IMG/VR virus record: IMGVR_UViG_3300018031_000018
Span: 1 to 24,579 of that record
DNA length: 24,579 nucleotides
Source of the DNA: a virus
Lineage: Duplodnaviria > Caudoviricetes
Direction: 5' to 3' (one strand)
Both the position numbers and the translations under genes were made by a program. Of the stretch, positions 360 through 24,579 are shown in pieces (position 1 is the stretch's first letter; each line of letters starts with the position of its first letter). The notes beneath the pieces are model-generated. The model worked only from the letters and a program-made list of their open reading frames with translations. It did not search any database and was not told the DNA's origin.

Positions 360-2155
360 TACACGTCAGCAGCACTTGGGAGAAAATCATAGAAGCAGAT
401 CAAAAGCGTATGGTCCAGACTCGTGCTGATCTTCGCCCCGGTGGACGCATTGATCGTTAGGGGCAGCGTGATAGGCTCATCTTGAGCAACATCCGGCCTC
501 CCGTCGCCGAGGGTCAGAAGAGGCACGTCGACCGAGATCCCGGCATTGGACTTCACGAGGTGCACGTCGAGCGTCACATCGCTGTTGTCCCTCACGGCCT
601 GGATCGCCGGGATGTCGGCGAGGAAGACGGTCATCGACCCGCCGACCTCGAAGGTCCCCACGCCCACCTCGAAGGCCCCCAGGACACCGACCGCCTTCAG
701 GGGGTCCGCATTGTTGTTCACGGTCAGGCTCAGGTCGCTGGCGAACGCGAAGAGCGGAGTCGGATTGGCCCACGTGTCGATGAACGCGTAAGTCACGTTC
801 AGAGTCGCCCCGGTGCCGGTCCCGCCGGTCGTGGCCGCCGGGTTCGACGGCGTGATCGTGTAGCTACCGCGGGTGTCCACCACGACGGCGGTCACCGCGC
901 CGGCGCTCACGGTCGTCACCTTGAACTTGGCCGCGACCGCGAAGGTCCCGCCGACGATCGTTAGAATGTCGTTCACGGTATATCCCGTACCGCCGGCACC
1001 CACCGTCGCCGTGAGCGCCTCCCGATTCGTCGTGCTGGCCCCGAATCGGGCCAGCTTGATCCTGGAGAAGTCAGAACTCGTGTTGAACGCGTCGGCCTCG
1101 ATGAGGGCCGGCCTGGTGCCGGACTTCACGCCAGTCGCGCCGGTCCTCTGCTCCACGTCCAGCCCGACGTAGGTCAGGTCCAGCGTTACTTTGTCGGCCA
1201 CCGGGATGTTCAGTGTCAGCTCATTCGTAACGGCTCCCACGACGTACTCACTCTGGACCTGGGTCGGAAGCGCGTCGTCCGGCGCCCCGAGGGTCCGCTC
1301 GAGCTGATACGTGCGCCGCTTGATCAGGGTACCGGTCTCATTCTTGAGGACCCTGGCCCCGTGGAAGACCCGGATGGTCTTGCCAGTCCCAAGGTCGGTC
1401 GCCATATTGCCGGCCGTTTTATCGAATTCGATCGCGTTCGTGGCGACTGAGCGCACCCGAGCGAAGCCATTGTTCCCGACCGTGGCGAACTGTTCGGCGG
1501 TCGCGTCCCCGCCGACGAAGAGGTACTCGCCCGGGATCACCCCGAGCTGGGTCAGATCCTTGGTGGTCGTGACCAACTTCGGGAGGGCTCCGGACGTATC
1601 GATCCGGGCGTCGCCCGTGGCGAACTGATGCCCGACCCGAGTGATCTTGCCGGTCTGCCCGGTAGCTGGGGTTAGGGGCGTGATCACCGGGACGCTCGTC
1701 GCGGTCACGGTGCCGGTCACTACCTTCAGGCCGTTATTCTGCGAGACGGCGAACCCCGAGGCAAAGAGCAGGTCGTTCACCCGGAAGCCGGTCCCGCCGG
1801 ACGCCGGCTCATAGTCGTCGCCGGTATCGCCGGTGTCCACGATCGCCACGTCCAGGTCGGTCTTGATCCGCAGGTCCGCGAAGAAGAACCCCTGGAGGTG
1901 CTTCTGGAGGTTCGTCTGTGTCAGATCCGTATTGAACCCGCCGCTCGCGTCGAGGTCGGTCGTCACGCCCTTCTTGCGCTGACGCCCCGGGTTAATGGGA
2001 TTTCTGGCGACTGTCGTGATCTCCCCGCCGAAGTCGGCGAAGGAGTTCGGCTCGAACGGATCCCAGATTGGAGTCCCCGGAAGGACCTTCAGGCTCGTCT
2101 CCTCCGCGATGCGGAGACCCACGACGTTACTGTCGATCTTAAGAACAGCGACCAT
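359..2155 (-). CDS. Major tail tube protein (siphovirus type) with inserted accessory domains
   Basis: 598 aa. Motifs [39 protein letters not shown] and FEVGGSMT typical of this tail-tube family. GGAGGAG RBS. Located directly after the tail terminator. Confidence 0.85.
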
Positions 2156-2183
2156 CTATTTACTCCTCCGTAATTCTACCACG

Positions 2184-2633
2184 TCACACGAACTCGTCAT
2201 ATCGCATCTCGGCCAAAATTTGAAAAGCGAACCAGGGCCCGTCCTGTCCCACCTCCGAGATCCGCACGTTCCGAAACCAGACGCCGCCGGCGGTCGCCTT
2301 ACCCTCGAAGGCCTTCTTAGCCACCATAGCCAGCTTCTCGCCGTCCTCGAGGCCGCGGTTCTGCCCGAGGGGGGCGAACACGCCCACGGTCACGATCCCG
2401 GTCTTCTCGAAGCGCCGCTTGCCCGTGTCCTGGGCGAGGGTCGCTTGGGCACCCGACGTGTGCCGAATCGTCACATCGGCCCATGGCTTATCCGGAGATG
2501 GGGCGCTAGTCCTCGGTACTCCGTCGTAAAACACGTCGGGTACGAACCCGACGATCGCCGCCGCGTCGGCCTCCCACCGCGTCCTGAAGGCCCCGAGGAT
2601 CTCGTCCCTAGCCGCATCGAAGGTCGTCGGCAT
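2184..2633 (-). CDS. Tail terminator / tail completion protein (DUF4128-like)
   Basis: Start moved to MPTTFDAARDEI (ATG 2633), just after the upstream stop at 2636. Motifs PWADVTIRH, GIVTVGVFAPLGQ, GVWFRNVRISEVG..GPWF, YDE. Position immediately before the tail tube. Confidence 0.75.
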   Translation of the reverse strand: MPTTFDAARDEILGAFRTRWEADAAAIVGFVPDVFYDGVPRTSAPSPDKPWADVTIRHTSGAQATLAQDTGKRRFEKTGIVTVGVFAPLGQNRGLEDGEKLAMVAKKAFEGKATAGGVWFRNVRISEVGQDGPWFAFQILAEMRYDEFV

Positions 2634-2635
2634 AC

Positions 2636-3007
2636 CTACTGCCTCGCCGTAACCTCGAAGATAAGATTCTGCCCATTGGGGTTCAGAGGCCTGACCTCGA
2701 TCAGCGCCCACCGGCTCTTGTCGGCCCTGATCAGGACGTCCGTCGCCGGGTCCGGATCGGATTTGAGATCCTTCCCGGCCAGGATGGCGAACACCTCGCC
2801 CTCCTTGGCAAGCGTGGCTCGGCGGATGACCGACTCATTAAGCCAGACCGCGGATACTTTCGTGTTCGTCACGCCCGGCGCCCCGGGCTCCCACGGCTTC
2901 GCCGGATCCGCCGGTGTCCCGGGGGTAGCCCGGGACAGCGTGGAGGTCTCCCCGTTCCTGGCCAGCAGCCGCTTGGCGGTGGCGATCAGGATGTCGAACC
3001 GGGCCAT
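2636..3007 (-). CDS. Head-tail joining (stopper) protein
   Basis: 123 aa, AKRLLARNG...DPAKPW...VRPLNPNG. Lies between adaptor and terminator. Confidence 0.7.
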   Translation of the reverse strand: MARFDILIATAKRLLARNGETSTLSRATPGTPADPAKPWEPGAPGVTNTKVSAVWLNESVIRRATLAKEGEVFAILAGKDLKSDPDPATDVLIRADKSRWALIEVRPLNPNGQNLIFEVTARQ

Positions 3008-3008
3008 C

Positions 3009-3518
3009 CTATCCTCTCACGAGGTAACCGGACTGCTCGATCAGCCCGCGGAGTTTGAAGTCGGCCTTCGGGTAGCGGGGCTCCGAGAACGTGGCGCCAC
3101 CGATATAGCTGGTGGACTCCGACACCGGCCCGACCTGCTCGCTCCTGGACTGGACCACGGCCCCTGCGGCGTCCCGCGTGGGGATCGGGTTCAGCTCGGA
3201 GGTCAACGCGATCAGCGCGTAGTCCATGCACGCCTCCTTAACCTCCTGTGGTATGCCACTCCTGGCATGTTGGTCGTCATCCTCCGGGAGCGTCCTGGGC
3301 CACGCCGTCCGCTGGGCGACGGTCGAGCGGTCCCCCCGGAAGCGGAAGCGGTGGTCCATATAGTCGGTCGCCTTGATGATCGCGATCTGGACGTCGGCAT
3401 CCGCCTCGCCGGCCACGTCCGCCCCTCGGTCCGCATGGTAGGCCTTGAACTCGGCGGCGGTGACGTAGGCGTTAGCCCCGCTCACGGAGCCGGAATCGTT
3501 CTGGATGAGGAATGCCAC
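3009..3518 (-). CDS. Head-tail adaptor (family often annotated 'DnaT-like ssDNA-binding protein')
   Basis: 169 aa with DSGSVSGANAYVTAAEFKAYHADRG, ATDYMD, QRTAWPR, IPQEVKEAC and EQVGP motifs. Synteny with the head-tail region. Confidence 0.8.
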   Translation of the reverse strand: MAFLIQNDSGSVSGANAYVTAAEFKAYHADRGADVAGEADADVQIAIIKATDYMDHRFRFRGDRSTVAQRTAWPRTLPEDDDQHARSGIPQEVKEACMDYALIALTSELNPIPTRDAAGAVVQSRSEQVGPVSESTSYIGGATFSEPRYPKADFKLRGLIEQSGYLVRG

Positions 3519-3722
3519 TCACAGTCTCCCGCCCCCCGGAGTGTTCCGATCGACACCCCTCGGGATGAAGCGCCTATCGGTCTCTCTCTGTGGAATGAGC
3601 ATCTCTGGAGCCATGCGCTGCGGCCTGCGTGGCAGACCCTCCCCGACGTTGCTCCATCTCGCAGAGTACGTACTCCATCCCTCGGGGGTAGTCTTGATGT
3701 GCCGCAGGATTACACTACCCAT
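3519..3722 (-). CDS. Hypothetical protein
   Basis: 67 aa. TAATG coupling to the upstream gene and abuts the downstream gene. Confidence 0.5.
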   Translation of the reverse strand: MGSVILRHIKTTPEGWSTYSARWSNVGEGLPRRPQRMAPEMLIPQRETDRRFIPRGVDRNTPGGGRL

Positions 3723-4540
3723 TATTTTAATCTCCGAATGACAACTGGGATCGGGGTTGGGAGCGGAAGGACGACCGTCAAGGCCGCGCCAACCGCGCCC
3801 TGGTGGACGATTGTACCCACCAGCGGGCTCGACGGCATCAGTTCCTTAGCGCCTGGGGGAAACGTCTCCACCCGCAGCGTCCGATCGCCCAGGTTGTCAC
3901 TAGCAGCCGCCACAGTCAGCAGATTGCTCGCCGGCTCGAAGGTCGCACCGGCGATTGGCGCCGTATCCTGCAACTTCTTCGTCAGGACGCCGCACATCAC
4001 GACGTTGTTCAGACTCGATGTACCAGTGAGGTTAAAGGTCGCCCCAGTCCCGGTCCCGCCGGTGACGGCAGCAGGATTCGTCGGCAGGGTCGTATAGAGC
4101 CCTGGATCAATCACAACGGCCGCGGTCACGGCGCCAGCCGCTACGGTCGTCGCCTTCAGCCGGGCCGAGGCGGTGAACGTCCCGCCCGAGACGGTGAGCA
4201 CATCGTTGACGGTGTAGCCAGTACCTCCAGCCCCGAGGGTGATGGAGGTGACGCCGATCTGCCCAGCAGCCACCTTTCCACTCACATCGACCAGATCGGG
4301 CTCCCCACCTGATGCGAGACTGACCCGTACGCGGTATTCCCAACCGAGCAGATCAGCCGCGAAAGCGCCCGTGATCTGCGTAGCCGTAGCGTCCTCCCAC
4401 CCGAAATCACCGGAATGCTCAGCTCGACACATATTTTTCGCCTCGGTGGCATTGGCTGCCTCAACGAGATATGTACCGACGCCGTCGAACCGGGTCGCAT
4501 TGAGAGATCCAGTAGGGAGCTCCACGAAAAAGTAAGCCAT
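3722..4540 (-). CDS. Putative virion structural / capsid decoration protein
   Basis: 272 aa, beta-rich, directly after the major capsid gene, with AGGAG RBS. Carries a 72-aa Gly/Thr-rich module also present in the tail tube. Confidence 0.6.
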   Translation of the reverse strand: MAYFFVELPTGSLNATRFDGVGTYLVEAANATEAKNMCRAEHSGDFGWEDATATQITGAFAADLLGWEYRVRVSLASGGEPDLVDVSGKVAAGQIGVTSITLGAGGTGYTVNDVLTVSGGTFTASARLKATTVAAGAVTAAVVIDPGLYTTLPTNPAAVTGGTGTGATFNLTGTSSLNNVVMCGVLTKKLQDTAPIAGATFEPASNLLTVAAASDNLGDRTLRVETFPPGAKELMPSSPLVGTIVHQGAVGAALTVVLPLPTPIPVVIRRLK

Positions 4541-7548: not shown

Positions 7549-9618
7549 TCAATCCCCTAAGTTCGCTTCTTCAAAGGCATCGCCGTGCCGGGCCTCCAGC
7601 TCCTCGAGGGTCAGTTCATTTCCCCTCCGATCAGTAAACTCATGGATCTCCAGCCCGCCGCGACGGAATAGTGCTCCGCGGGTTGGACCCAGGACCTCGT
7701 CTTGGAACGCTGCTGACTGGTCCCCGAGCCACTCCCCGTAAGTGATCTTGGCCGGCACGCTCCCAATGTTCTCATCGGCCCATTCCTCGCGGATCTCCCC
7801 GATCGGGCGTCCGGTGCGCCTAGCCTCGGCCCGGAAGTCAGCCAGACGCTCGTCTGGCCGGCGGGCATCGCTGACGAAGGGCCGGTTACCCACCAGGGCC
7901 TCACCATCGATCACGGAGACCATGACGGATCGGCAGTTATGTGTTATTATGTTACCGAATGTGGCAAAATAAATTCCGGAACCGGTTTGGAGGTTAAACA
8001 CGTGGCCCGAAAAATCACGCCGTTCGATATCGACGATCTCGTCACACGATACGTGTCCGGAGAGGGAGTCCATGACATCTGCCGAAATCGCGAATTCTCG
8101 GACATCGTCCTCTATCGAATTCTCAAGGAACGAGGAATATCGAGACGAAGTGCCGGAGAGGCTCGTCGCCTGGCATGGAGAGATCCCGAGAAGAGAAGAC
8201 GAGGCTGTGAGGCTAATCAGGGAATCTGGGATAGAAGAACACCGGAGGATAGGGCGGCCCAGATTTCGGCCGCCCATATTGCGTCTAGAGGACGAACGAG
8301 GTCTCTCCAGGAGAAATGCCTTAGTGCCAGAACCAGGGAGGGAAAGATGGACTCTCGATCCTCTACTCTCGAGAGATTGTTTAACGATATGATGCTGGAG
8401 CGCGGGCTCTGCTTCGACACGTTTCAGAAGGCTTTTGGTCCCTATAATACAGACTTCGCCATCGATCGCATCGCCGTGGAAGTCGCATCCAGAAGTCGAG
8501 ACCAAATTCATACCCGGACCTTCGAGAAGCGGACGCGCTACATTCTCGATTCGAGATGGTCCATCCTGGTGTTCGTGTTCGACACCGCTAAATGGATCCT
8601 TACTCCCAAGGTAGCAGATTACGCGGTCGCTGCGATCCAGGAGCTTCGCTGCGACCCATCCTCGATCTGTGAGTATCGGGTGATTTGGGGTGCAGGTCAG
8701 TTCGTGTTTCGACGCCGTGCGGATGACCACAATCTCTCCTGCATAAAACCGTTTCATAGCGGCCGTGATCCCGCCACAGGGCAATACATAACTATCGCCA
8801 AGTAAACAATTTACGTGGGCAGAAGGCCGCGCCCCGTTCGGCTCCAGTGCTCGCTCTCCCTCCGGCAGTGGCCGATCGTCCAGCATCACGAGCGCCCCGT
8901 CTCGGGACCGACAGATCGCAGATGTCCGGCCATCAAGGGTGGCCGTCCACCGGAGGGCCGATACGATATCCTCGTTGCCCTCCCAGACCGCTTCTCGGGC
9001 CGCATTTGAGACGTGGTTCACCGCGGTCCGCACCACCGCCTCCGCATTCCTCCTGGTGATCGCCAGGACTCCGTCCTGGAACCCATTGGCGCGGGTCCCA
9101 GCCACCCGGCGAACGATCTGCTGTACCCCTTCCCCCTGTGCCAACCCGAGCTGGATCTCTTGGACGAGGTTCCGCTGGTCAGTTGCCCGGAGTTCGGAGA
9201 ACCATTCCCCGAGGAGCTTCCCTTGGAACGGGCGCTCGGTAGCGATGGCCGCGGCCGATTGAATCGGGAGGCGGGCCAACTCGACGCGGATCGGGATGGA
9301 TGCCTTGATGGCCCTGCCCTCGGCCCGGATTTCTTGGGCCGCGAGCGCCTCGAGCTTCCCCGCAGTCCGGCGCCGCACCGCGTCCACGACCGTACGGCGC
9401 AGTTCCCTGATCTCCTCAAGCACGGCCCGATATCGCCGGCTGGTGAAGTCAGTCACTGCCCCGAGGCGGGCGAGGCGCACCCGAAGCTTTTCGACCAACT
9501 CCCGATCCGCCCCCTCAAGGAGGCGCAAGATCGCCCGTACCTCACCGGCCGCGAACCTGCGGACATCTACCTGGTGACGGAGGGAGACCCGGAGGAGCTT
9601 CTCGTTAGCAGTCGCCAA
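7549..9618 (-). CDS. Minor head protein (Mu gpF / SPP1 gp7 family) precursor containing an intein
   Basis: 689 aa, TTG start. MuF motifs AEAVVRTAVNHVSN and WTATLDGRTSAICRSRDG. The conserved H-x-N-C-R-S motif is split as ...AHVN|intein|CRSV. Predicted spliced product 270+128=398 aa. Confidence 0.9.
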   Translation of the reverse strand: MATANEKLLRVSLRHQVDVRRFAAGEVRAILRLLEGADRELVEKLRVRLARLGAVTDFTSRRYRAVLEEIRELRRTVVDAVRRRTAGKLEALAAQEIRAEGRAIKASIPIRVELARLPIQSAAAIATERPFQGKLLGEWFSELRATDQRNLVQEIQLGLAQGEGVQQIVRRVAGTRANGFQDGVLAITRRNAEAVVRTAVNHVSNAAREAVWEGNEDIVSALRWTATLDGRTSAICRSRDGALVMLDDRPLPEGERALEPNGARPSAHVNCLLGDSYVLPCGGITAAMKRFYAGEIVVIRTASKHELTCTPNHPILTDRGWVAAKLLDRSDRVICYLGSKDPFSGVEHEHQDGPSRIENVARPLLEGPGMNLVSTSGCDFHGDAIDGEVCIIGTKSLLKRVEAEPALQHHIVKQSLESRGSRVHLSLPGSGTKAFLLERPRSSSRRNMGGRNLGRPILRCSSIPDSLISLTASSSLLGISPCQATSLSGTSSRYSSFLENSIEDDVREFAISADVMDSLSGHVSCDEIVDIERRDFSGHVFNLQTGSGIYFATFGNIITHNCRSVMVSVIDGEALVGNRPFVSDARRPDERLADFRAEARRTGRPIGEIREEWADENIGSVPAKITYGEWLGDQSAAFQDEVLGPTRGALFRRGGLEIHEFTDRRGNELTLEELEARHGDAFEEANLGD
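7942..8004 (+). promoter_or_regulatory. Putative antisense extended -10 promoter, RBS and start for the intein-nested endonuclease
   Basis: TG-T-TATTAT at 7942-7950, GGAGGT at 7989-7994, 7-nt spacer, GTG at 8002-8004 in frame with the plus-strand ORF. Confidence 0.6.
8002..8805 (+). CDS. Putative homing endonuclease (HTH + basic helical linker + Vsr/DUF559-like PD-(D/E)xK domain), antisense inside the intein
   Basis: 267 aa from GTG 8002 (frame open from ATG 7939). HTH-like LVTRYVSGEGVHDICRNREFSDIVLYRILKERGI. Nuclease-like STLERLFNDMMLERGLCFDTFQKAFGPYNTDFAIDRIAVEV...RTRYILDSRWSILVF. Strong RBS. Confidence 0.78.
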   Translation: MARKITPFDIDDLVTRYVSGEGVHDICRNREFSDIVLYRILKERGISRRSAGEARRLAWRDPEKRRRGCEANQGIWDRRTPEDRAAQISAAHIASRGRTRSLQEKCLSARTREGKMDSRSSTLERLFNDMMLERGLCFDTFQKAFGPYNTDFAIDRIAVEVASRSRDQIHTRTFEKRTRYILDSRWSILVFVFDTAKWILTPKVADYAVAAIQELRCDPSSICEYRVIWGAGQFVFRRRADDHNLSCIKPFHSGRDPATGQYITIAK

Positions 9619-10157: not shown

Positions 10158-10369
10158 CTCAGTACCATCCTAAAATTCGTGCACCACGACGAATTACACT
10201 CTAGCGCCGGCGGAGTCACGCCGATATATAAAACTTCCCCGCCGCAGAGCGGGCACGCCATGTCTCGCACCACGTCGCTCGGAAGAAAGCTCATGCAAGC
10301 AGTATTGGGGCATATGTCCCTGCCCTCCGGGACGCGTGTTCCGCACCTTCTACACTTCCGCCTGTCCAT
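10154..10369 (-). CDS. Small double zinc-ribbon protein
   Basis: 71 aa with eight Cys: CRRC..CPNTAC..CPLC..CNSSWC. Confidence 0.6.
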   Translation of the reverse strand: MDRRKCRRCGTRVPEGRDICPNTACMSFLPSDVVRDMACPLCGGEVLYIGVTPPALECNSSWCTNFRMVLR

Positions 10370-11771
10370 CGATCATTGTCTCCGCTCGACCGGTCATCAT
10401 CTCGGCCTCCACCTTTGCCCGATCCTCCTCAGGGTCGAAGTCGTCTGCCAAGAGGCCCCGGCGCTTAAGTTCCTCCAGATAGGTTTCTCGGCTGATCTCC
10501 CGCATCTGTCGGGCTGTGGTCAAGGTCTGGAGATCGGATGCCTGGGTCGTCTCGGGTCCCATGTCCGTCGTGATTTCGATCTTCCCCGGCTCCTCGATCC
10601 CCATCCACCTAGCCGTGAGCCACAGGGCCTGGGCCAGGACATCATTGAACCTGACGGCTGCGTCCTGGAGCGGCGACGTAGCCTCCGCCGAATCCAACGC
10701 CCGGGCGGTGGCCGTTTCCGTCCCGGGCCGGCGACGAAGGAACTCCGCCCCGTAGTGAGACATCCTCTCCTCCAGGTCTCGGATGTGCTCTCGACCAGCA
10801 GCGATCGCGGCCCCGGAGTGCTCCGTGAAGTACCACCGCCCGCCCTCCGTTGGCGTGGACAGGATCTTCCTCGGCGAAAGAACCACGTGGTCAACCTGCT
10901 CCTGTGAGACGCCGCTGGCACACAAGAGGGGGAACCGAGCGACTATCAGGATATTATCCTGATCCGATGAGTGCTGCCAGTGGGATACGTTCAGATCCAC
11001 GAGATCCTCGATCGGAGGCTTACCCGTCATGAGCCCGACTCGATCGGCGTAGAAGGTCACAAGCGGTATCCGATCCAGGTCGATCCTGGATGGGCCAACG
11101 ATCCGTCTCCATTCTTCCTGCTTCTCGCCCGGCTCATAGACGGAGAATTCCGTGATGCCGGTATCTGGATCATGGTCGAACGTCCTGACACGTCGCAGAT
11201 ATTTCTCTCCCCATTCATCGCGGGCGCTCTCGCCTTCCCGGATGCGGACGTGTGTGAGGATCTCTTTGCCATTCCGCACTATGGACGCCGCGAAGATCAG
11301 ATTCTCGGGCTTGATAAACGACCAAAAGGGCCTGCGCCCCTCTCGTAAGTCGTCGGCCAAAGTCCTCTGCCGTTCCCCCTCTATGGAGATCGCCGGGAAG
11401 TCCACTAAGACGTGGGCCAAGGCTTTGCCGAGCCCCTCCCGGAACCACTTCCTGGCGAAGACGCCGACGGCATTCCCCTGGAGGTCCACATCCTCGAGCA
11501 CACCCGAGAGCACCTCGGGGATGTCCGTCATGACAATCGGATCCGAAAACGGGCGTCCAACCCAGGACTCCAGGGTCTGGGAGGATACGTTCGTCAGGAC
11601 GGCCCGAATCAGCCTATTCCGATAATTAGTTTCTTTCTCGCTCTCGTAGCGAGGTAGATACGTCTCCCCCTTCAGGCGGATCGCCTCTGTGCCGGACAAT
11701 ACAGCATCTATCTTATCCCATGTTCGGATCATGGAATGCCAAGCAGCCGACGGGGAATCAGGAGTCAACAT
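10350..11771 (-). CDS. Portal protein (DUF4055-like)
   Basis: 473 aa. GETYLPRYESEKETNYRNRLIRA, DVDLQGN, HVLVDFP, KPPIEDLVDLNVSHWQHSSD, ETATARALD, ISRETYLEELKRRG. Follows terL. Confidence 0.9.
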   Translation of the reverse strand: MLTPDSPSAAWHSMIRTWDKIDAVLSGTEAIRLKGETYLPRYESEKETNYRNRLIRAVLTNVSSQTLESWVGRPFSDPIVMTDIPEVLSGVLEDVDLQGNAVGVFARKWFREGLGKALAHVLVDFPAISIEGERQRTLADDLREGRRPFWSFIKPENLIFAASIVRNGKEILTHVRIREGESARDEWGEKYLRRVRTFDHDPDTGITEFSVYEPGEKQEEWRRIVGPSRIDLDRIPLVTFYADRVGLMTGKPPIEDLVDLNVSHWQHSSDQDNILIVARFPLLCASGVSQEQVDHVVLSPRKILSTPTEGGRWYFTEHSGAAIAAGREHIRDLEERMSHYGAEFLRRRPGTETATARALDSAEATSPLQDAAVRFNDVLAQALWLTARWMGIEEPGKIEITTDMGPETTQASDLQTLTTARQMREISRETYLEELKRRGLLADDFDPEEDRAKVEAEMMTGRAETMIDGQAEV

Positions 11772-22291: not shown

Positions 22292-22804
22292 TTATGTCGA
22301 ATTCCTTATACAGTACCCCAACATCGAGAGGTGCTGCTTGAACCTATCATGGTTCCCATTAAAGAGATATAGCATCGATCCGTACGGATTCGATCCCCGC
22401 GGCATCCCATCTGGCCCAAGGAACCGGATTCTCCTCAGCACGAAGCAGATCGAGGTCAGGGCCGGAGTGAATATGCAGCTCTGGAAATATGCCTGCTCGA
22501 ACCGTTGGCCAGGTAGGAGGGCGATAACGTGGGCACCCCGGGCAGTCTCGACCCGAATCTTGTCGAGCCACGCCCGTAACTCCCGACCATAGGGCGGATT
22601 GACAAATATCCGCGCGGCGCAGGGTATCTGCCAGTCCTTCTCCAGGCCGCTGTTTTCCTTCGTCCAGAAAATCGCAGCTCTAGTAGGATTATGTGCGAGA
22701 GAGGCGGGATCTATATCGATCTGACCGCCGAAATAGGCACGTACCGGCTCCAGCACCCGCTCAGGCGTGTAATACTCCGTGTCTTGACATTCCTTATCGA
22801 TCAT
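22292..22804 (-). CDS. Phage DNA N6-adenine methyltransferase (Dam-like phage family)
   Basis: 170 aa, YYTP...IDIDPAS...GLEKDW...FVNPPYG...RRIRF. Confidence 0.82.
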   Translation of the reverse strand: MIDKECQDTEYYTPERVLEPVRAYFGGQIDIDPASLAHNPTRAAIFWTKENSGLEKDWQIPCAARIFVNPPYGRELRAWLDKIRVETARGAHVIALLPGQRFEQAYFQSCIFTPALTSICFVLRRIRFLGPDGMPRGSNPYGSMLYLFNGNHDRFKQHLSMLGYCIRNST

Positions 22805-23184
22805 GTCGATGGACCCTCGTTCTTGGGCCTGAAACTCGGCTTGGAACCACTGTAGCCGCCCTTTCCGGCCGGGTTCCTAACCGTCTTCAGGAATGCCGAT
22901 GGTACGCGCCTCTCGTCTGGGTGAAATAAGACGATCCCGTCGTAATCCCCATCCAACGTCAGAGGAGCTGATAACGTGCCTCCGACCCTGACCACTTGTC
23001 TCGCCCACCACTTCCTGGCCGCCTGTGCCGCCCTCGGCGTTCGGCGCTCGTAATAAATCCCCAGGAGATCCTGACCGACGAAAAATAAGTGGTCCCGGCG
23101 TAGCCCAGCCCGAATGCACGTCGCGATCGAAAGGCCATCCTCATGCTGCAACAACCTCAGGCCCGGGATCAATTGGAAGTTCAT
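22801..23184 (-). CDS. Hypothetical protein
   Basis: Start moved to MNFQLIPG (ATG 23184). ATGA overlaps at both ends; 127 aa. Confidence 0.55.
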   Translation of the reverse strand: MNFQLIPGLRLLQHEDGLSIATCIRAGLRRDHLFFVGQDLLGIYYERRTPRAAQAARKWWARQVVRVGGTLSAPLTLDGDYDGIVLFHPDERRVPSAFLKTVRNPAGKGGYSGSKPSFRPKNEGPST

Positions 23185-24579
23185 GTTAGTACTTCTGGGG
23201 GCTCCGTAGACCCGGTCCGCCAGTTGTTCGCCTTTTCCACGGTGTTGCATTCTTGAGGGACACCTTCGACATGATACGTACCCGTCGAGGGGTTTACCAT
23301 TTTCAGATAGGGGCGGCGCCGCCCGTCACTCAAATCGAGGGTAAGCAGCTCGTAGTCGCCCCGGCGGTCCAATACCTGAGCTTTAAGCTGGGAACAAACG
23401 CGCTCTATCCCCACTTTACGGACGATTTCTCGCCTGACTTCTGCGTTTTTTTCCCGGAGGATTATCGACGAGTCGATTTTTTCGGCGGGAGTTTCAACTA
23501 TGAAGCGCGGCACTTGGACCCCATTTAACATATAGAGTCCCCACCCGTCTGGCCATTCTATCGCCTTTCTCCCGTCTGCATGAAGCTGTCCGCGCGAATT
23601 ACGTAGAATGGTTGTCGGGTGCTCTGAAACCATGACGAAGTTTACATTTGACCACCAGTAGCCCGCTGAACAAACGGTATCTTCGTAAGCTCGCGCCTGG
23701 AGTAGAAGCTCTGGATCTAATGTAAGATCACAAGCGTCGAGGAAAAAATTAACCCAGGCGGCCCAAGACGCCCAAAATTGACCCCCTAACCAAAAATGCC
23801 AATCTAACTTAAAAGATTTCGGGTTGACTGCCGAGCCGATTATCGAGTAGACTGCCGAGTTGACTGCCGAGTCGACTGCCAAGAGGACTTCCAAGTCGAC
23901 TGCCGAGCGGACTTCCGAGTCGACTGCTGAGTCGACTGTCGAGTCGACTGCCAAGCCGACTGCCGAGTTGACTGCCGAGTAGATTGCCGAGTCGACTGCC
24001 GAGCGGACTTCCGAATCGACTGCCGAATCGACTGCCGAGTTGACTGCCGAGTTGACTGCTGAGCGAACTGCTAAGCGGACTGCTGAGTCAATTGCCGAGT
24101 CGACTGCCGAGTCGACTGCCGAGTCGACTGCCAAGAGGACTTCCGAGCCGACTGCCGAGCGGGCTGCCGAGTTGACTGCCGAGCTGACTGCCGAGTTGAC
24201 TTCCGAGCTGACTGCCGAGTAGACTGCCGAGTCAATTGCCGAGTCGACTGCCGAGTCGACTGCCGAGAGGACTTCCGAGTTGACTGCCGAGCCGATTGTC
24301 GATTGTATCTTCGTGCTACTAACTCGTAAGCTCTTCTTTTGATAAGACTTAATAATAGCACGACTAATTGACGCGGCAATCGCGCCAACGAGTGGAGACG
24401 AAACCCAAATTGGGTTGCCAGGCCATTTAAATTTCGCTGTTTTGTAACACTGGCGGGCGCCGCGCTCCCACCGCTCGTGATCGGCTGGCCCGGTTCTTAA
24501 GCCGATCTCTATCCAGCGTTTTTTCCACTCAGGGAGGAGGGCTTTCTGTTTTGCGGTTAGCCGACTAATCTTGGACGGC
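23181..24579 (-). CDS. DUF6745-like protein with central tetrapeptide repeat (5' end at or just beyond the window edge)
   Basis: Frame is open from 24578 (PSKISRLTAKQKALLPEWKKRWIEIGLRTGPAD...WVSSP), through SAVx repeats, to GQLHADGRKAIEWPDGWGLYMLNGVQVP...NAEVRRE...PSTG..H...VP. At least 465 aa, longer than the ORF track call. Confidence 0.8.
   Translation of the reverse strand, partial: PSKISRLTAKQKALLPEWKKRWIEIGLRTGPADHERWERGARQCYKTAKFKWPGNPIWVSSPLVGAIAASISRAIIKSYQKKSLRVSSTKIQSTIGSAVNSEVLSAVDSAVDSAIDSAVYSAVSSEVNSAVSSAVNSAARSAVGSEVLLAVDSAVDSAVDSAIDSAVRLAVRSAVNSAVNSAVDSAVDSEVRSAVDSAIYSAVNSAVGLAVDSTVDSAVDSEVRSAVDLEVLLAVDSAVNSAVYSIIGSAVNPKSFKLDWHFWLGGQFWASWAAWVNFFLDACDLTLDPELLLQARAYEDTVCSAGYWWSNVNFVMVSEHPTTILRNSRGQLHADGRKAIEWPDGWGLYMLNGVQVPRFIVETPAEKIDSSIILREKNAEVRREIVRKVGIERVCSQLKAQVLDRRGDYELLTLDLSDGRRRPYLKMVNPSTGTYHVEGVPQECNTVEKANNWRTGSTEPPEVLT
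23822..24297. repeat. Degenerate 12-nt coding tandem repeat (about 39 units)
   Basis: Consensus GAGTCGACTGCC on the plus strand; encodes S-A-V-x on the minus strand. Confidence 0.9.

Follow-up and report, generated by a model that had tools for sequence, protein, structure and literature searches.

Inteins with a Vsr-like endonuclease gene on the strand opposite to their own reading frame have recently been reported from actinobacteriophages: in the main text of their preprint, Gosselin, Arsenault and Gogarten (bioRxiv 10.1101/2025.01.02.630785) describe full inteins that hold anti-sense VSR-like endonucleases matching 1CW0 and 3R3P, and list none but non-canonical inteins for minor capsid genes. 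Splicing and homing are separated differently in the fractured genes described in the text of Dassa et al. (2009, PMC2677866), where the intein is split, the endonuclease lies between the halves and all three coding regions share one strand. We have analysed an intein in the MuF minor head gene of a tailed phage (IMG/VR record IMGVR_UViG_3300018031_000018, positions 1 to 24,579; this whole stretch of 24,579 nucleotides is called the window). Neither a split intein nor a same-strand endonuclease between its halves is found there; the intein is contiguous and the nuclease gene overlaps it antisense. An earlier note on this DNA, made from the letters alone, knew of no description of the architecture; the preprint provides one. 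The element is real and well supported, and it belongs to the recently described kind.

Most probably the element is a contiguous class 1 MuF intein together with an antisense, selectively maintained Vsr-like gene that is likely to have a promoter of its own and to cleave MuF alleles lacking the intein, which would then receive a copy of it; the biochemical steps are all ones that we infer. As the kind has already been described, a single copy adds little, and the view across the family is the more useful one.

The intein and the gene on its opposite strand

7549..9618, minus strand: MuF (SPP1 gp7-like) minor head gene, 689 amino acids including the intein; Phage_Mu_F at residues 153-271, E 1.8e-10
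7936..8808, minus strand: class 1 intein, 291 amino acids, with Cys1, T40-x-x-H43, block F GHVFNL, H290-N291 and a +1 Cys
8002..8805, plus strand: antisense endonuclease gene, 267 amino acids; likely start GTG 8002, stop TAA 8803-8805
8008..8139, plus strand: N-terminal helix-turn-helix (residues 3-46); structure matches to Tn3 resolvase (Z 6.4) and the GcrA DNA-binding domain (Z 6.2)
8356..8718, plus strand: Vsr-like nuclease fold (residues 119-239), with E124 (8371), D151 (8452) and E160 (8479); structure matches given below

Class 1 inteins are recognised by an N-terminal Cys or Ser, T-x-x-H in block B, a C-terminal His-Asn and a Cys, Ser or Thr at position +1. All of these are present in the window intein (C1, T40 and H43, H290-N291, +1 Cys), which runs from C1 over TPNH and GHVFNL to ITHN|C and matches Pfam Intein_splicing (1e-6), in agreement with the 291-residue intein with blocks A, B, F and G read by the earlier note. 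The sense frame is contiguous and holds zero stops, and the GC content of the intein is 0.53 versus 0.64-0.67 in the exteins. An AlphaFold model based on an alignment of 30 inteins is confident as a HINT fold at both ends, and Foldseek retrieves with it inteins and other HINT domains, headed by 7qst (E 3e-4) and 2imz (E 6e-4). Residues 123-237 have a predicted local distance difference test score (pLDDT) below 50, so the middle is predicted to be disordered, as the note had expected, and no LAGLIDADG or HNH Pfam match was found in the sense frame, where the note too had seen neither motif. The sense middle would be a tolerated disordered loop.

The codon-aligned frame of the plus strand begins to be open at 7717 and ends with TAA (8803-8805), so that it stretches even further than the 7939-8805 claimed before, and this stop is the reverse complement of TTA, the codon of intein residue Leu2. 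The claim that the antisense frame equals the intein minus one codon at each end therefore stands at the stop end; it falls at the start end, where GTG 8002 is the likely start. The AlphaFold model of the antisense protein (alignment of 148 sequences, the window plus 147 relatives) reaches a pLDDT of 91.9 and is laid out as a helix-turn-helix (3-46), a helical arm and then the Vsr-like domain. It matches Vsr (1cw0; Z 11.1, root-mean-square deviation 2.3, 111 residues aligned), I-Bth0305I (3r3p; Z 9.3, deviation 2.5, 94 aligned) and ngo0050 (3hrl; Z 8.4), and a Foldseek search again puts 1cw0 and 3r3p first. The folded nuclease with helix-turn-helix and helical linker that had been predicted for this strand is borne out by the model. 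At the level of sequence the family profile matches 3hrl (E 1.5e-4) and 3r3p (E 7.5e-3); among the 148 family members, Pfam finds MTES_1575 in 65 and DUF559 in nine, and helix-turn-helix families in about one third.

Openness of the antisense frame alone is weak evidence in a GC-rich phage, since in-register antisense stops are rare there: the two exteins, portal and terminase together hold 14 in 1,375 codons, and at that rate some 7% of frames as long as 267 codons are expected to lack a stop. Under synonymous resampling with pooled codon usage the frame is open in 25 of 5,000 cases. The window also holds, at 1995-4097 on the plus strand, a 700-codon frame opposite several tail and head-completion genes that has no Pfam match and is probably a shadow open reading frame (ORF). 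The scarcity of stops and the existence of such other long, unannotated plus-strand frames speak for reading the nuclease frame, too, as a shadow ORF that arose by chance opposite a GC-rich gene. This explanation is refuted by the confident nuclease model with its fold matches, by the lower antisense substitution ratio and the Leu codon usage of intein middles (next section), and by homologs that stand free of any intein. The case for an antisense gene is carried by homology, fold and selection.

Selection and conservation in the two frames

The ratio of nonsynonymous to synonymous substitution rates (dN/dS), pooled over 11 pairs of which two come from one phage subfamily, was determined for both frames along the intein. 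The sense and antisense values are 0.32 and 0.48 for residues 1-62 (blocks A-B), 0.69 and 0.33 up to the DFHGD motif, 0.80 and 0.22 in the intein middle, 0.43 and 0.42 before block F, and 0.04 and 2.28 in the last 20 codons. The last pair serves as a built-in control, since it shows that constraint on one strand need not lower the ratio on the other. Given this control, a coding map follows from the frame-specific values: in the middle it is the antisense frame that codes, in the 20 codons at the C-terminal end only the sense frame does, and blocks A-B code both ways, the last 60-65 residues of the nuclease being co-coded with blocks A and B. Between the window and its nearest relative, L186, the middle is 30% identical in sense and 54% in antisense, with proportions of nonsynonymous and synonymous differences (pN/pS) of 0.31/0.79 in the antisense frame. 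The Leu codons TTA and CTA occur once among 3,491 Leu codons of intein middles, versus 12.8% in exteins.

The nuclease family comprises 1,316 cluster representatives at E <= 0.001. By tblastn 121 phage records match, and the listed matches lie under coding sequences named as head-morphogenesis, minor-capsid, hypothetical or otherwise. A scan of viral contigs with the window antisense protein as single query returned nothing beyond the window's sister contig. The layout was followed in two sets of loci. The first set, picked by the nuclease, consists of 19 phage loci chosen by hand among the 121 records, together with viral-contig loci, of which the best 80 out of 518 were taken and the sister contig was set aside, leaving 79; the nuclease is antisense and codon-aligned within the intein in 18 of the 19 phage loci and 78 of the 79 viral loci. 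Six edge or intein-less loci and two with miscalled boundaries were dropped before counting; in the 90 relatives with sound boundaries the antisense stops are confined to the first 28 or last 29 codons of the intein. The second set, partly independent of the first (loci are redundant, the sets overlap and the nuclease tail shares its DNA with blocks A-B), was picked by the extein junction plus blocks A-B; this gave 565 viral and 470 metagenome matches, and the best 80 of each kind were taken. Its 158 examined loci include 146 complete inteins, 145 of them with the antisense nuclease and 140 with an unbroken frame; the broken frames are frameshifted in two cases and have a stop past the cut-off in three. 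Nearly all these relatives display the unbroken antisense frame, with the lower antisense dN/dS in the middle, that the earlier note had proposed to look for. The residue and codon statistics below refer to 172 loci with inteins less than 80% identical, from which two frameshifted and 12 incomplete loci, as well as L218 and L122, had been left out beforehand.

A called ORF overlaps the antisense gene in two of the 19 fetched phage records, partially in sam and as a free-standing gene in IME285; annotation overlooks the gene in most of the cultured phages examined.

Several variants of the layout were encountered. Some inteins of the family are shortened (188-191 amino acids) or frameshifted (L105 and L167/L168 by deletion, L187 and L220 by frameshift) and are either decay intermediates or assembly errors; L167 has an open antisense frame yet is internally deleted. 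In L218 (1534-2136, minus strand of the locus) a MuF intein of 356 amino acids with open sense frame carries an antisense HNH ORF in a different register (200 amino acids from stop to stop, Pfam HNH E 1.8e-10), by which most of the Vsr-like gene is displaced and both its ends are left. An antisense HNH gene is absent from the four types named in the consulted passages of bioRxiv 10.1101/2025.01.02.630785. In Escherichia phage KMB36 (L015, 1168-2061) the element sits at another MuF site (SRTSTT|CRARD), which lies upstream of HPN|CRS, the usual one. The intein of REQ3 (L016, 1348-2022) starts with Ala (class 3), and it too carries this antisense nuclease. Since the KMB36 site differs and the REQ3 intein is of class 3, the antisense nuclease pairs with more than one site and more than one splicing class.

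Predicted expression signals and the active site

7942..7950, plus strand: predicted extended -10 box TG-T-TATTAT, opposite the block G Ile-Ile-Thr codons (ATA ATA ACA)
7989..7994, plus strand: predicted Shine-Dalgarno sequence GGAGGT, 7 nucleotides ahead of GTG 8002, opposite the block F Asn-Leu-Gln codons (AAC CTC CAA)

GTG 8002, the likely start, is what the block F His codon CAC gives on the other strand; relatives, whose gene starts at the same His, mostly have CAT, which is read as ATG, and the 21 codons ahead of GTG 8002 are probably untranslated. The earlier note had let the gene begin at ATG 7939, the reverse complement of the penultimate His codon. This start was rejected because relatives often have stops in those codons, because the antisense dN/dS there is 2.28 and because the site lies upstream of the predicted -10 box.

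In the 172-intein set the codons concerned depart from extein usage. The block F His is CAT in 115 of 131 cases (229 of 577 extein His codons, 40%), the block F Leu is CTC in 124 of 159 (613 of 2,516 extein Leu codons, 24%), and Leu2 is TTA or CTA, which gives the antisense stop, in 111 of 118 (321 of 2,516, 13%). These codon nulls rest on extein usage because no control MuF inteins with in-frame endonucleases turned up. A -10-like hexamer stands at the fixed place in block G in 95 of the 172, against a mean of 14 and a maximum of 25 in 1,000 synonymous resamplings, an extended -10 box in 61 against 2.7 and a Shine-Dalgarno sequence in 117 against 32.5; all these are consensus matches in related sequences, whose shared ancestry inflates the counts. 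A weak -35 element (ATGACG, 7922-7927) sits in the C-extein, and the promoter-like sites in the window, two found versus 0.9 expected, are weak evidence by themselves. In 23 of the inteins the His is displaced inward by two codons (H-G-x-V-Y-N-L), and there as well the antisense strand reads ATG; 17 have neither start, and 13 of these also lack the CTC that spells the Shine-Dalgarno sequence. The conserved layout, the purifying selection on the antisense frame and the predicted promoter and ribosome-binding site support the earlier proposal of a two-strand element with a separately encoded nuclease. For dual coding in codon-aligned frames, with synonymous sites that also spell expression signals, the family is a clean example from nature.

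In a profile alignment to 3r3p, E124, D151 and E160 coincide with E170, D196 and the conserved acidic residue 'x' of I-Bth0305I, and they are conserved in 167, 172 and 171 of the 172, respectively. H213 of I-Bth0305I is named as the proposed general base in the text of Taylor et al. (2011, PMC3239194). At this position 149 of the 172 relatives have a His (of the G-G-x-W-H type); the window has D167 (8500) in a loop reading SRSRD, and keeps H170, three residues further on, which is present in 132 of the 172. D222 of I-Bth0305I, whose column was assigned by profile alignment only, lacks a conserved counterpart in the family: the aligned F174 is variable, and the columns of E175 and K176 hold Glu in 47 and 71 of the 172. 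Since the H213 equivalent is Asp and the D222 counterpart is not conserved, the window protein is, judged by its sequence, not a strict EDxHD enzyme, though built like one.

The lost His, together with a GTG start where the block F His codon of most relatives yields ATG and the decayed copies among the relatives (deletions in L105 and L167, frameshifts in L187 and L220), could mean that the gene was once a homing endonuclease gene of which the window copy is catalytically dead and decaying, with the intein now inherited vertically. We consider this unlikely. L186, whose intein is 51.5% identical, has the same AVEVASRSRD-x-IH, keeps E124, D151, E160, H170 and R177, and shows in its middle the low antisense pN/pS given above; moreover, inteins without the His in the Guernseyvirinae look recently transferred (see below). 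Since L186 keeps the same loop at this distance, the His-less loop of the window fits better with a maintained variant than with fresh decay.

Mobility, origin and relation to known systems

8809..8839, minus strand: N-extein sequence next to the insertion site (SAHVN|), making up one half of the predicted target

MuF homologs without an intein (L102 and SETP7) are contiguous at the insertion site, where L102 reads HPS|CRS, and the empty site is as the earlier note had given it. The sister contig (L001/L101/L185, run X1) is identical to the window over about 5.9 kb save three substitutions, at 8823, 8836 and 8839, which span 17 nucleotides and lie 15-31 nucleotides off the insertion site (SAHVN in the window, PAHVN in the sister); this cluster in the N-extein is possibly a small recombination patch at the target.

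Among phage records 473 match a Jerseyvirus extein and 72 match its intein. The phages sam and demigod have identical inteins with N-exteins that are 87-90% identical, and the extein of the intein-less SETP7 is 84-91% identical to that of sam. Between the Jerseyvirus sam and the Kagunavirus Snoke the intein is 95.7% identical versus 67.5-80.4% for the exteins, a contrast that is explained in part by dual coding, which slows intein evolution. From these comparisons the His-less Guernseyvirinae inteins look mobile and recently transferred, and the patchy, horizontally spread relatives seem to fit with homing. The cultured pairs of intein-bearing and intein-less Jerseyvirus and Kagunavirus phages make homing by the antisense gene directly testable, a test absent from the consulted sections of bioRxiv 10.1101/2025.01.02.630785.

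The homing that we regard as probable would begin with transcription by the host (sigma-70 type), initiated at the extended -10 box of block G, and with translation of the nuclease from GTG 8002. The helix-turn-helix and the helical arm would recognise the H-x-N|C-R-S/C coding site, and the nuclease would cut the empty MuF allele of a co-infecting phage, upon which recombination repair would copy the intein. The MuF precursor would splice with its disordered middle looped out, restoring a MuF protein of 398 amino acids. It is possible that such an arrangement uncouples homing from late expression. The terminase large subunit is a late packaging gene. Uncoupling is not needed as an explanation, and the published survey speaks against it: most inteins there have an ordinary in-frame endonuclease (712 of 784), and terminase large subunits are the commonest host (293 inteins), according to the main text of bioRxiv 10.1101/2025.01.02.630785.

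Several points weigh against this explanation of the window element, besides the inflation of signal counts by ancestry and the slowed evolution of a dual-coding intein. The window antisense protein by itself has no Pfam match and no PDB sequence match, and the Foldseek E-values for its model are no better than 0.013-0.02. Its -10 box matches in 5 of 6 positions, its start is GTG, and the equivalents of H213 and D222 are missing as described. No intein-less allele close to the window phage was found, the nearest being 49% identical. The contigs of four of the five listed sequencing runs showed no joint across the intein, which, given the patchy cover outside run X1, counts as evidence in neither direction; no RNA run is among those listed, which has no bearing on expression.

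Antisense selection is also silent on what is selected for, and with its altered active-site loop the protein could have a different activity. The protein might be made and selected for a phage function other than homing, for instance as a site-specific DNA binder or as a nuclease that keeps out co-infecting phages lacking the intein; the intein would then serve to carry it. The same insertion motif in unrelated phages, the patchy presence with transfer across genera and the closest characterised fold, which is that of a homing endonuclease, make this very improbable.

Two nuclease genes of the family are free-standing, in Acinetobacter phage IME285 (L017, 455-1348) and in L091 (1689-2675). 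Both are convergent with, and directly behind, intein-less MuF genes. They carry the C-terminal tail that in inteins faces block B. Stops abound on the strand opposite them, and a search of this strand with an intein profile gave no significant match to an intein remnant for either gene. Upstream of the L091 gene stand TG-T-TATACT and GGAGGT, resembling the intein-borne signals. A tree from a quick search, made with 94 of 171 rows after three rows had been dropped beforehand, places the two genes apart among the intein-borne ones, with no strongly supported branch that forces two origins. The free-standing genes could represent the ancestor or an escape from the intein. As a wider picture, which we offer tentatively and hold to be possible rather than probable, the family would be a self-contained two-strand element. 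Synonymous codons of its splicing motifs would serve as promoter, ribosome-binding site, start and stop, the folded C-terminal tail of its nuclease would be overprinted antisense of blocks A-B, it would have stayed mobile after loss of the Vsr His, and it would shed free-standing genes beside MuF genes without an intein, so that origin would run opposite to the direction that has been published.

By Pfam scan the window is a minus-strand tailed-phage head and tail operon with terminase, portal, MuF, scaffold, capsid and tail tube genes. MuF is flanked by the portal gene (10350-11771) on one side and the scaffold and major capsid genes on the other (Pfam DUF4055, Terminase_6N, Phage_scaffold). 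Further minus-strand genes encode a Dam-family adenine methyltransferase (22292-22804, E 8.8e-15) and a DUF6745 protein (23181-24134).

A literature search by title and start of abstract, in which most subscription papers were not covered and on which preprint supplements may bear, gave no account of an embedded promoter and Shine-Dalgarno sequence in such inteins and no assay of the family. Likewise, the words 'promoter', 'ribosome' and 'start codon' are absent from the main text of bioRxiv 10.1101/2025.01.02.630785, figures and supplements being outside this statement. I-Bth0305I, an EDxHD enzyme, shares with the window protein an N-terminal DNA-binding part, a C-terminal Vsr-like domain, E170, D196 and the acidic 'x', but according to the text of Taylor et al. 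(2011, PMC3239194) it resides in a group I intron of recA, and its H213 is Asp in the window and its D222 is not conserved in the family. The cyanobacterial dnaX intein (bioRxiv 10.64898/2026.09.14.751524) is similar, as far as its text describes, in having splicing and endonuclease functions in separate overlapping frames with frame-specific dN/dS and a putative Shine-Dalgarno sequence before the hidden ORF; it differs in using the +2 frame, in the LAGLIDADG family of its endonuclease and in its bacterial chromosomal host.

The closest likeness is to the inteins of Gosselin et al. (bioRxiv 10.1101/2025.01.02.630785), which, in the main text, are also contiguous, with an unstructured in-frame middle, an anti-sense VSR-like gene with a preceding helical stretch and a minor capsid host. 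Indeed, their 225-residue REQ3 minor capsid intein is our locus L016, which bears the antisense nuclease and is found by the family profile at E 5e-35. Unlike the actinobacteriophage inteins described there, the family extends to phages of Salmonella, Escherichia, Vibrio, Pseudomonas, Klebsiella and Aggregatibacter and to many metagenomic contigs.

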